Source: Escherichia phage bumzen
Sequence record: MN850635.1
Strand: one strand, 5' to 3'
Length of the DNA stretch: 64,000 nt
The notes beneath the pieces were generated by a model that had not been told where the DNA came from, did no database searches, and saw only the letters and a program-made list of their open reading frames with translations. Each line of letters begins with the position of its first letter. Positions within the stretch are counted from its first letter, which is position 1. Below, one piece after another: positions 4,274 to 4,873 of this stretch. The position numbers were made by a program, and so were the translations under genes.

Positions 4274-4295
4274 AAAGACCTTTTTAGGTCTTTTT
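4274..4295 (+). terminator. hairpin with T-run (terminator or processing hairpin)
   Basis: AAAGACC-TTTTTA-GGTCTTT followed by TTTTTAG; a second palindrome CTTCTAAG...CTTAGAAG lies just downstream (4302-4357). Confidence 0.35.
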
Positions 4296-4373
4296 AGAGG
4301 GCTTCTAAGGTTATTACAGCTTGTTGTGAACCTTGTTGCTTAGGTTCTTAGAAGTTCTCTAAAAAGATTTAAT

Positions 4374-4451
4374 GGGAGATTGACGGTAATTGGTAAACCT
4401 ATCTCGCTTAGAACGAGATGTTTGAGGGTTCGAATCCCTTGTCTCCTACCA
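4374..4451 (+). tRNA. tRNA-Leu (anticodon TAG), short variable arm
   Basis: Acceptor GGGAGAT/GTCTCCT; D-loop AATTGGTAA; anticodon stem TCTCG/CGAGA, loop CTTAGAA; A73; CCA encoded. Confidence 0.55.
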
Positions 4452-4458
4452 AATTAAT

Positions 4459-4534
4459 GCAGGTGTAGCAAAATGGTTATGCGGCTGACTCTTAATCAGT
4501 AAGACGATGGGTTCAATTCCCTCCACCTGTACCA
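4459..4534 (+). tRNA. tRNA-Lys (anticodon CTT)
   Basis: Acceptor GCAGGTG/CACCTGT; anticodon loop CTCTTAA; T-loop TTCAATT; paralogous to the TTT isoacceptor at 2869. Confidence 0.55.
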
Positions 4535-4540
4535 GACATT

Positions 4541-4616
4541 GGGGATGTAGTTTACATGGTTAAAACATAAGTTTTGCAAACTTAAGTACAGGGTTCAATT
4601 CCCTGCTTCTCCACCA
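4541..4616 (+). tRNA. tRNA-Ala (anticodon TGC)
   Basis: Acceptor GGGGATG/CTTCTCC including a G3-U70 pair; anticodon stem TAAGT/ACTTA, loop TTTGCAA; CCA encoded. Confidence 0.7.
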
Positions 4617-4622
4617 ATTAGT

Positions 4623-4697
4623 GCATCCATAGTTTAAACGGGAAAATTACAGTCTTCCAAACTGAGGTTGAGGGTTCGATTCCCTCTGGATGCTCCA
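4623..4697 (+). tRNA. tRNA-Gly (anticodon TCC)
   Basis: Acceptor GCATCCA/TGGATGC; anticodon loop CTTCCAA; T-arm GAGGG-TTCGATT-CCCTC; U73; CCA encoded. Confidence 0.65.
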
Positions 4698-4703
4698 AAT
4701 AAT

Positions 4704-4780
4704 GCTGCTTTCGTATAATTGGCTATTACACATCCCTTGTAAGGATGGAAATGCAGGTTCGAGTCCTGTGAGCAGCACCA
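4704..4780 (+). tRNA. tRNA-Thr (anticodon TGT)
   Basis: Acceptor GCTGCTT/GAGCAGC; anticodon stem CATCC/GGATG, loop CTTGTAA; T-arm GCAGG-TTCGAGT-CCTGT; CCA encoded. Confidence 0.75.
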
Positions 4781-4781
4781 A

Positions 4782-4873
4782 TTCAGAGGTCAAGTGAAAG
4801 ACCGCTGGTGTCAACTGAAGACCGTAACAAATTCCACGGAGTTGAGTTAGCGGCACAACTTCAGACCTCTTTC
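4782..4873 (+). ncRNA. structured element related to the CAGAAGACC family
   Basis: CAGAGGTC (4783-4790) pairs with GACCTCT (4864-4870); contains CTGAAGACCGTAACAAA. Confidence 0.35.

Follow-up and report, generated by a model that had tools for sequence, protein, structure and literature searches.

Conserved folded spacer modules and a candidate small RNA gene in the tRNA array of a Felix O1-type phage

Layout of the tRNA array and its spacers

Escherichia phage bumzen (sequence record MN850635.1) carries a tRNA array of ~5.5 kb, and we analyzed the folded RNA elements between its tRNA genes in a stretch of 64,000 nucleotides (nt) of this genome (hereafter, the window, to which all positions refer). 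Over positions 1600-7300, the sequence shares 98.6% identity with Escherichia phage tootiki and 95% with Salmonella phage Felix O1, and the phage belongs to the genus Felixounavirus. Between 1776 and 7048, ARAGORN finds 25 tRNA genes, all on the + strand; Rfam contributes one further tRNA (3352-3430), and a promoter scan places sigma-70-like promoters at 1629, 1720, and 3119. The usual spacer between tRNA genes is A/U-rich and 1-8 nt long. In each long spacer, by contrast, a stem closes the spacer on itself and ends 1-9 nt 5' of the following RNA gene. We denote the elements of these long spacers as hairpin (a) and long leader hairpin (b), both upstream of tRNA-Leu; (c), a structured RNA between tRNA-Thr and tRNA-Val; and the short leader or trailer hairpins (d1), (d2), (e), and 3312-3346. 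In our favored reading, which we hold with moderate confidence on the basis of sequence comparison, the hairpins are folded spacer modules that organize RNase III/E/P processing of a polycistronic precursor, and (c) is a new small RNA.

An earlier, sequence-only reading of this DNA had proposed that the array is punctuated by one shared set of GACC/GGTC-based hairpins, possibly processing sites that release individual tRNAs or Ro-bound RNAs. All of the sequences it quoted were found in place, and all of the listed elements fold more stably than dinucleotide shuffles (z-scores from -2.9 to -5.5). Likewise, the notion of punctuation held, in that the array contains conserved + strand RNA structures, some of which recur as paralogs ((d2), (e), and 3312-3346). 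The single shared set did not, as the elements fall into at least four unrelated classes. The GACC/GGTC theme survived in part: these words occur 23 times in the 1,972 nt of array spacers versus 7.5 ± 2.6 times in shuffles (0/2000 reach 23), i.e., an ~3-fold enrichment, and at 11.7 per kb in array spacers versus 5.1 per kb in the remainder of the window, but they are not present in (d) or (e). None of the elements is annotated in the records of four relatives (tootiki, Felix O1, Moogle, and Mordin), and no terminator is listed inside the array in the Felix O1 genome paper (PMC3185647). Rfam gave no real match for any of the elements, (c) included, either at the gathering threshold or at E <= 10; matches of miRNA-precursor families over (b) and (e) were dismissed as reflecting mere hairpin shape. 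The structures of the elements, their strand, conservation, covariation, positions, and copy number, as described below, are what the sequence analysis shows.

Hairpins in leaders and trailers of the tRNA genes

The long leader hairpin (b) occupies positions 4284-4372 of the + strand (5' arm, 4284-4310; apex, 4311-4345; 3' arm, 4346-4372), is the longest inverted repeat in the 64-kb window, and terminates 1 nt 5' of tRNA-Leu (4374). The palindrome noted earlier near 4302-4357 (arms CTTCTAAG, 4302-4309, and CTTAGAAG, 4347-4354) is real but was under-described, being part of a 27-bp stem that pairs 4284-4310 with 4346-4372. In its context (4262-4373), the minimum free energy (MFE) fold contains 27 consecutive pairs (-37.5 kcal/mol, z -4.9), and folding of 4288-4370 yields -33.5 kcal/mol (z -5.5), a value equaled by 0/200 shuffles. 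In an alignment of 21 distinct homologs, drawn from Felixounavirus, Suspvirus, and Mooglevirus, paired cells make up 98.4%, versus 34-64% when the partner is slid. More specifically, 13 of the 27 pairs vary; nine do so through wobbles alone, and in one a U-A pair is exchanged for G-C. The cells comprise 451 Watson-Crick, 104 G.U, 1 A.C, and 8 U.C combinations. Because G.U so outnumbers A.C, the pairing functions in + strand RNA and not in the complementary strand, and it fits poorly as a DNA cruciform. The versions in SUSP1 and Moogle form 27-28 pairs with one mismatch. In L090, a more divergent metagenome relative with the same gene order, 25 of 27 pairs are kept, with nine positions differing and four altered on both sides; one of these double changes mends to G-C a U.C mismatch of Moogle and SUSP. 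The apex is variable, save for a conserved unpaired UUGUUGCU.

Hairpin (a), which is weak and terminator-like, lies at 4274-4295 on the + strand, where AAAGACCU (4274-4281) pairs with AGGUCUUU (4286-4293) around a UUUU loop and is followed by UU; the parts quoted by the sequence-only reading are AAAGACC (4274-4280), TTTTTA (4281-4286), and GGTCTTT plus TT (4287-4295). Its folding energy is -9.3 kcal/mol (z -3.1 versus dinucleotide shuffles). The stem AAAGACC/GGUCUUU (7-8 bp) is retained in 23/23 distinct homologs and varies by wobble only (AAAGGCC, giving G.U, and AAAGACU, giving U.G), while the loop is free in both length and sequence (TTTTTA, TATTTA, AAATTA, AGTTA, AATA, or GTTTA); this pattern fits a hairpin whose shape matters. 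The U-tract on its 3' side reads UCUUUUU in the window and most relatives, and UCUUUGU in L090. Immediately upstream, with its 3' end bordering (a), lies a conserved non-coding stretch of 108 nt on the + strand (4166-4273) that carries no annotation, has no Rfam match, and is 93-97% identical in Moogle, Mordin, and SUSP1/2. It contains a covarying helix (TAGTC, 4247-4251, with GACTA, 4266-4270), which becomes TAGCC/GGCTA in L090. The hairpin that precedes this stretch after tRNA-Ser (4133-4161) is hypervariable, being wholly different in sequence between lineages. The Felix O1 'ORF46' across the Ser-Leu gap was rejected as an open reading frame (ORF) here, as stops interrupt its frame in the window. 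Tentatively, we regard (a) as a weak hairpin that either resembles an intrinsic terminator or forms the 3' end of the conserved upstream RNA.

The two hairpins overlap: the 5' arm of (b) begins with the 12 bases that make up the loop, 3' arm, and U-run of (a), and the MFE fold of the whole leader contains (b) instead of (a) in three lineages. Since the competing arm lies downstream of the U-run, (b) cannot be an antiterminator and can merely replace (a) in read-through RNA. We also weighed an arrangement in which (a) is a true intrinsic terminator for the unit transcribed from the promoter at 3119 and the (b) region harbors a weak promoter (TTGCTT-18/19 nt-TA(A/C)AAA) starting near tRNA-Leu +1, the palindrome being incidental to this promoter or modulating it. 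Such a layout would explain a hairpin conserved in its stem only and followed by a U-run, as well as the conservation in all lineages of the apical TTGTTGCT, even though it is unpaired; TTGTTGCT lies 18-19 nt from TA(A/C)AAA in the window, Moogle, Mordin, L052, and L090, and terminator-then-promoter layouts also occur in the upstream region of L023 and at 1624-1657 of the window. Nevertheless, the -10-like hexamer lacks a conserved final T, the site was missed by the promoter scan, and L090 loses the U-run of (a) yet retains the long stem. Moreover, a promoter leaves unexplained both the 27 covarying pairs and the asymmetry of 104 G.U to 1 A.C. Thus, we consider this arrangement unlikely, and prefer to see in (b) a stem that functions in the precursor RNA.

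The remaining hairpins are shorter. Between tRNA-Asp and the next of four CAGAAGACC...GGTCTGG elements (described below), where the sequence-only reading had noted hairpin structure at 2441-2494, two hairpins lie within 2442-2495, both on the + strand: the G+C-rich (d1), GAG-GGGCU/AGCCC-CUC (2442-2462), directly 3' of tRNA-Asp and with no U-run, and the leader hairpin (d2) (2463-2495), which has a UACG tetraloop and ends 1-2 nt before that element. Together (2437-2496), they fold with -20.7 kcal/mol (z -3.4); in the joint alignment, 93.8% of cells are paired versus 38-71% when slid, and three pairs are altered on both sides. For (d1), the changes in relatives L018 and L007 are wobble-compatible, and GGGCT/AGCCC becomes GGACT/AGTCC in L090. 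For (d2), one pair runs through A-U, G.U, and G-C across relatives, in which the loop is UACG, UGCG, or UUCG. The + strand hairpin (e) (5938-5961) ends 3 nt before tRNA-His. What had been noted as AAGGA..TCCTT at 5934-5962 is real but incomplete, the full stem being 10 bp, UAAGGAUUCU-UGCG-AGAGUCCUUA, with a folding energy (5934-5964) of -11.6 kcal/mol (z -3.75), and its variation is limited to A-U/G.U and U.G/U-A. Finally, the + strand leader hairpin at 3312-3346, inverted repeat I5 of the window, is related to (d2) and (e) and ends 5 nt before a tRNA-like gene (3352-3433); it folds with -17.6 kcal/mol (z -3.9, 0/200 shuffles).

The core GGTTCTTACGAGAG is common to (d2), (e), and 3312-3346, in the form (A/G)GGUUCUU-ACG-AGAG, with arms that align, and by this sequence likeness the three are paralogs; their tetraloop drifts among UACG, UGCG, UUCG, and UAUG. 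In L090, (e) still abuts tRNA-His although the upstream tRNA differs, and before the gene resembling tRNA-Arg(TCT) an unrelated sequence again makes a long stem ending 'AAT|tRNA'. Because (e) stays with tRNA-His and a non-homologous stem in L090 takes the place of the leader hairpin, the selected feature is a stem in the 5' leader. The motif itself is less distinctive: GTTCTTRCGAG occurs in the window in (d2) and (e) only, a count not above chance, and a pattern scan of IMG/VR for (e)-type hairpins returned Felix-like phages together with unrelated marine-phage terminators, none of the latter near tRNAs, which means that the motif cannot serve as a specific marker. Among the inverted repeats of the window, the second-longest (42352-42406, ATACTTTAAAACTCTTAAAAGATTATT / AATAGCTTTTAAAAAGCTTTAAAGTAT) is built on CTTTAAAG-type words, as are the leader hairpins.

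The tRNA-like gene downstream of hairpin 3312-3346 has features of its own. Rfam scores 3352-3433 as tRNA with 33 bits, and the records of Moogle and Mordin annotate it as tRNA-Arg(TCT). The acceptor stem, CGGGGCG/CGCCUCG, with G3.U70 and A73, is alanine-identity-like; a D arm is not obvious, and the variable region is long. Upstream, and downstream of the strong promoter at 3119-3147, positions 3197-3232 read GCA AAC GAC AAT GTT TTT CTG GCA GTA GCT TGA TAG, encoding ANDNVFLAVA followed by two stops, which resembles an SsrA/transfer-messenger RNA (tmRNA) tag (E. coli, ANDENYALAA). Sub-threshold Rfam matches nearby are tmRNA_permuted (3043-3229, 30 bits) and tmRNA (3161-3350), and ARAGORN called no tmRNA in the array. 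Judged from these sequences, the gene and the tag-like ORF may form an unconventional tmRNA-like system. Another tRNA-like sequence, 3935-4017, combines a GGGACG/CGUCCC acceptor stem with an anticodon-like loop containing CCA; it has no ARAGORN call, and its sole Rfam match is tRNA-Sec at 21 bits.

Element (c), the Ro-like protein and the mosaic array

Element (c) is a single-copy structured RNA of ~87 nt on the + strand (4784-4871), beginning 3 nt after tRNA-Thr and ending 5 nt before tRNA-Val. Its quoted parts are CAGAGGTC (4784-4791), CTGAAGACCGTAACAAA (4815-4831), and GACCTCT (4864-4870). The fold is a rod: a closing stem P1 of 7 bp (4785-4791/4864-4870); P2, CCGCU/AGCGG (4802-4806/4849-4853), with internal loops on both sides; P3, UCAACU/AGUUGA (4811-4816/4840-4845); a 5-nt GAAGA bulge (4817-4821); P4, CCGU/ACGG (4822-4825/4836-4839); and a 10-nt loop, AACAAAUUCC (4826-4835). 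Positions 4781-4875 fold with -30.7 kcal/mol (z -2.9). In an alignment of 14 distinct sequences from Felixounavirus, Suspvirus, Mooglevirus, and Avunavirus, the mean column identity is 96%, and 97.7% of cells are paired versus 30-44% when slid. An invariant core of ~39 nt (about 4810-4848) takes in the GAAGA bulge and the AACAAAUUCC loop, P3 and P4 being invariant in the present sample. P2 changes from CCGC/GCGG to CCAC/GTGG in L085 and L087, two metagenomic Felix-like contigs, with a G.U intermediate in L136, and in Escherichia phage Av-05 (Vequintavirinae, Avunavirus) a G-C pair of P1 is replaced by U-A. From these sequences, we regard the secondary structure of (c) as supported but not proven.

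The sequence-only reading had counted (c) among the punctuation signals, a view that does not fit an RNA gene present once and conserved like a tRNA. A covariance model built on (c) finds exactly one copy per genome and nothing elsewhere, with no match in the four upstream elements, L023, T4-like loci sharing the DUF7338 ORF (see below), or T4. The identity of (c) in Moogle, Mordin, SUSP1, and SUSP2 (0.86-0.94) is comparable to that of the flanking tRNAs, and its placement next to tRNAs is the same in Moogle, Mordin, L090, and Av-05, in the last directly 3' of tRNA-Gly. Thus, (c) is found in tRNA arrays of two unrelated lineages of enterobacterial myoviruses (Ounavirinae and Avunavirus). It received no tRNA call from ARAGORN or from Rfam tRNA (E <= 10), contains no T-loop, and in these tests shows no tRNA-like domain (T arm or D arm), its sole tRNA-like trait being the 7-bp closing stem. 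An 18-codon ORF with an AGAGG Shine-Dalgarno sequence was rejected as a coding explanation, as indels in relatives (6, 7, and 6 nt at 4806-4810) shift the frame. Matches to the core in bacteria (20 in genomes and many in metagenomes) were also set aside, those outside phages all being the reverse strand of a glutamine-amidotransferase 'GICYGLQ' coding motif and hence due to chance; among these matches, no bacterial genome carried the core in a (c)-like context. Base-pairing targets of the loop within the window are at chance level (9 versus 8.3 expected), and a kink-turn reading of the GAAGA bulge was rejected by inspection, the opposite strand having no A-G for sheared pairs.

An ORF for a DUF7338 membrane protein that lies within the array (5130-5687) is 58-63% identical in phages of 140-180 kb and 80% identical in Av-05, in which the block of tRNA-Gly, (c), and DUF7338 is syntenic with the window; this synteny suggests lateral transfer of an array segment. 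Moogle and Mordin carry (c) without the ORF, showing that the two are independent. The invariant bulge and loop suggest, on sequence grounds, that a conserved sequence-specific partner is bound. A possible, if rather doubtful, extension of this idea is that (c) founds a new class of small RNAs in phages. Its bulge and AACAAAUUCC loop would then capture a conserved factor of the host, for example, a tRNA-targeting defense nuclease or an RNA-processing or modification enzyme, and (c) would be a decoy or regulator instead of a by-product of tRNA processing.

Ro-bound RNAs had been raised as a possibility by the sequence-only reading, and the array does lie near a candidate gene for a Ro-like protein. 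The upstream ORF at 195-1610 encodes 471 aa with DUF2828 and DUF7788 domains (phrog_850, 'RNA-binding protein'), and its homologs in mycobacteriophages are annotated 'Ro-like RNA binding protein'; a PDB sequence search gave the protein no match, including none to any solved Ro60. In more than 250 bacteria and phages, Y RNAs are known to lie close to Ro60 genes (PMC4201824). Here, four paralogous CAGAAGACC...ACAGCAA...GGTCTGG elements (1942-2016, 2108-2170, 2497-2573, and 2587-2717) have an outer helix that covaries between copies (GAC/GUC, UUGC/GCAA, GAGC/GCUC, or UUAC/GUAA), followed inward by an internal loop AGA/G, a conserved helix AGACC/GGUCU, and a loop beginning (U/A)NCAGCAA; the fourth also has a T-arm (GAAGGUUCGAUUCCUUC) and a D-like arm, like YrlA. 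Given these sequence features, the four elements are likely partners of the Ro-like protein. A hairpin at 2821-2841 (within element 2720-2868), CAGACC-CUUUAGCAA-GGUCUG, shares its AGACC/GGUCU helix and AGCAA loop with the four elements; its stem covaries (CAAACC/GGUUUG in Moogle and L023, CAGUC/GACUG in L090) and its loop CUUNAGCAA is kept.

If the Ro-like protein (with its DUF2828/vWA architecture) recognized the GACC/GGUC helices of (a) and (c) as well, as it would AGACC/GGUCU in the four elements, this would account for the ~3-fold enrichment of GACC/GGTC in spacers, for the 5-bp AGACC/GGUCU helix that (a) shares with those elements and with hairpin 2821-2841, and for GAAGACCGT and the 9-mer GAAGACCGU, which (c) shares with two of the four elements; the protein's domains and annotations also favor it. 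Like Y RNAs (YrlA, RF02553), (c) is 80-130 nt long, has its 5' and 3' ends paired in a GGUC/GACC stem, contains internal loops, and lies close (3.2 kb) to a Ro-like gene. In contrast to Y RNAs, (c) matches neither the YrlA (RF02553) nor the Y_RNA (RF00019) model at 4781-4875 even at E <= 10, and has no tRNA-like domain; the sole YrlA match in the array (17 bits, over tRNA-His/Phe) was judged a chance hit, and the (c) covariance model in turn misses the Y-like elements. The shared 9-mer is unlikely, as a sequence match, to be due to chance, but in (c) it forms the bulge plus a half-helix (GAAGACC) with no GGUCU partner, and therefore points to common descent or a shared sub-motif, not to the same fold. 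The sequence of (a) drifts to AAAGGCC or AAAGACU, and P1 of (c) in Av-05 reads GAUGUC/GACAUC, GGUC not being kept. Av-05 (120,938 bp) carries neither a DUF2828/Ro-like homolog (best tblastn E = 5) nor any AGAAGACC...GGTCTGG element; because it keeps (c) all the same, the Ro link fails for (c). A role of the Ro-like protein at (a) and (c) is thus decidedly improbable, and the Ro/Y-RNA hypothesis for this phage narrows to the four upstream elements.

The array is mosaic, by sequence comparison, at the resolution of single genes. HNH or other endonuclease ORFs occupy different spacers in different relatives, and tRNA alleles have been swapped singly: tRNA-Thr is 0.36-0.44 identical in Moogle, Mordin, and SUSP1 (region 4541-4780), and tRNA-Ala is 0.71 identical in Mordin and Felix O1, with neighboring tRNAs at 1.00. 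This mosaicism, the occurrence of (c) exactly at a tRNA's place with a 7-bp closing stem, and the resemblance of (d1) to the ribosome-binding region of an ORF at 5111-5130 would be expected if the elements were functionless debris, i.e., decayed tRNA genes or scars of homing endonucleases. We regard that account as very improbable, because the elements are at least as conserved as the flanking tRNAs across genera, with compensatory and wobble-only substitutions, and (c) has no T-loop or tRNA score. In addition, in L085 (metagenome contig CYGL01000008.1), an ORF of ~112 aa (MKKGSVGEIATQLAFLKRGYEVYSPATDNAKYDFLVHKDG...), probably a small endonuclease, is inserted directly 3' of tRNA-Ser, at the start of the Ser-Leu gap, and hairpins (a) and (b) further downstream are intact.

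Proposed processing of the precursor and relation to known systems

We return to the reading in which these modules serve precursor processing. They would lie in the + strand polycistronic transcript of the Felix O1-type tRNA array, and it is the nuclease acting at each of them that we infer. RNase III substrates comprise approximately two turns (at least 20-22 bp) of largely unbroken double-stranded RNA. The stem of (b) has this length (27 bp; 25/27 pairs in L090), together with selection for pairing at the RNA level. Host RNase III would cut (b), parting the upstream unit from the downstream tRNAs; as (b) would cover the tRNA-Leu leader as far as position -2, this cleavage may also open the site for RNase P. 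In read-through RNA, the 3' arm of (a) would be captured by (b), and after termination or cleavage of (b), hairpin (a) could cap the 3' end of the conserved RNA 4166-4273. Hairpins (d1), (d2), (e), and 3312-3346, as leader or trailer hairpins, may prevent misfolding between neighboring tRNAs and may supply the structured neighbor that RNase E needs to cut single-stranded A/U-rich linkers. Element (c) is a separate small RNA gene whose product would be freed by the enzymes that release tRNA-Thr and tRNA-Val and stabilized by its paired ends (P1).

A processing role for (b), (d), and (e) is plausible in view of two precedents. One is the reported participation of RNase III in the maturation of T4 tRNAs (PMC4810235). 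The other is RNase E 'direct entry' (Clarke et al. 2023, PMC9841416), in which cleavage of a single-stranded linker beside a tRNA needs a neighboring folded unit; a plain stem-loop can stand in for that neighboring tRNA. The hairpins here are flanked by A/U-rich linkers, e.g., AAAU and AUUUAAU; direct entry was shown in vitro, for E. coli operons. In T4, a hairpin, CAAGGGUUCUU-GUUA-GAGAGCCUUUG, lies 8 nt 5' of tRNA-Gln, the first gene of the cluster, and its arm AAGGGUUCU is identical in (e) and (d2). RNase III is said to cut just 5' of this tRNA (Pragai and Apirion, 1981, and Gurevitz and Apirion, 1983, reportedly described it). The likeness is suggestive only, and homology is unproven; (e) and (d2), at 10-15 bp, are short for RNase III, and (b), at 27 bp, is unrelated in sequence to the T4 hairpin. 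The relation of (a) to (b) recalls retroregulation at lambda sib/tI: terminated RNA carries a small terminator hairpin, and in read-through RNA a longer duplex, on which RNase III acts, takes its place. A difference is that the lambda stem extends the terminator hairpin, whereas (b) replaces the partner of the 3' arm of (a), and the genes downstream of (a)/(b) are tRNAs, not an mRNA for destruction.

For (c), the closest parallel is in the T4 record, which lists two small stable RNAs within the tRNA cluster, rnaC (species 1) and rnaD (species 2). Like (c), these are non-tRNA RNAs (~90-140 nt in T4) arranged head-to-tail with tRNA genes on the same strand, and because of this arrangement RNAs of this type would be released by the tRNA-processing enzymes. 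Unlike rnaC, which has a T-arm-like GGGUUCGAAUCCCGG hairpin, (c) has none, and even with filters off the (c) model scores no higher than 9.6 bits (E >= 0.8) anywhere in the T4 cluster, giving no homology in sequence or structure.

Several observations weigh against the processing reading or parts of it. As a terminator, (a) has a stem of 8 bp with just three G-C pairs, was not called by a consensus terminator scan of the window, and is absent from the TransTerm table of Felix O1; the promoter scan found no sigma-70 promoter between (a) and tRNA-Leu, so that half of the array depends on read-through of (a). For (c), variation is scarce: the structure rests on two compensatory pairs and a few wobbles, with a modest z of -2.9, and a P4 pair is broken in two singleton variants. 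Unrelated marine phage contigs likewise carry arms such as AAGGGTTCT/AGAGCCCTT, there in plain terminators, and the resemblance to T4 may for this reason be convergent. The literature searched held no RNA-end, cleavage, or abundance data, transcript map, or small RNA for any Felixounavirus.

The hairpins add to known kinds, namely leader or trailer hairpins and, within precursors of phage tRNAs, stems of the RNase III type. Element (c) is an unannotated addition to the loosely defined group of small RNAs in phage tRNA clusters that is not homologous to those of T4, and nothing in the whole set is categorically new. Felix O1-type phages are classic typing and biocontrol phages, and their array has so far been annotated as tRNAs plus a few ORFs. 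Instead, nearly every long spacer of the array is a conserved folded RNA module, and (c), an unannotated RNA gene with conservation at the level of tRNAs, also occurs in another phage subfamily. Should the processing model be true, the array would be a compact natural system in which to study the division of labor among RNase III, RNase E, and RNase P, and its insulating leader hairpins would provide design rules for building synthetic tRNA arrays. Were (c) to bind a host factor, it would be a new player in the tRNA-centered arms race between phage and host.

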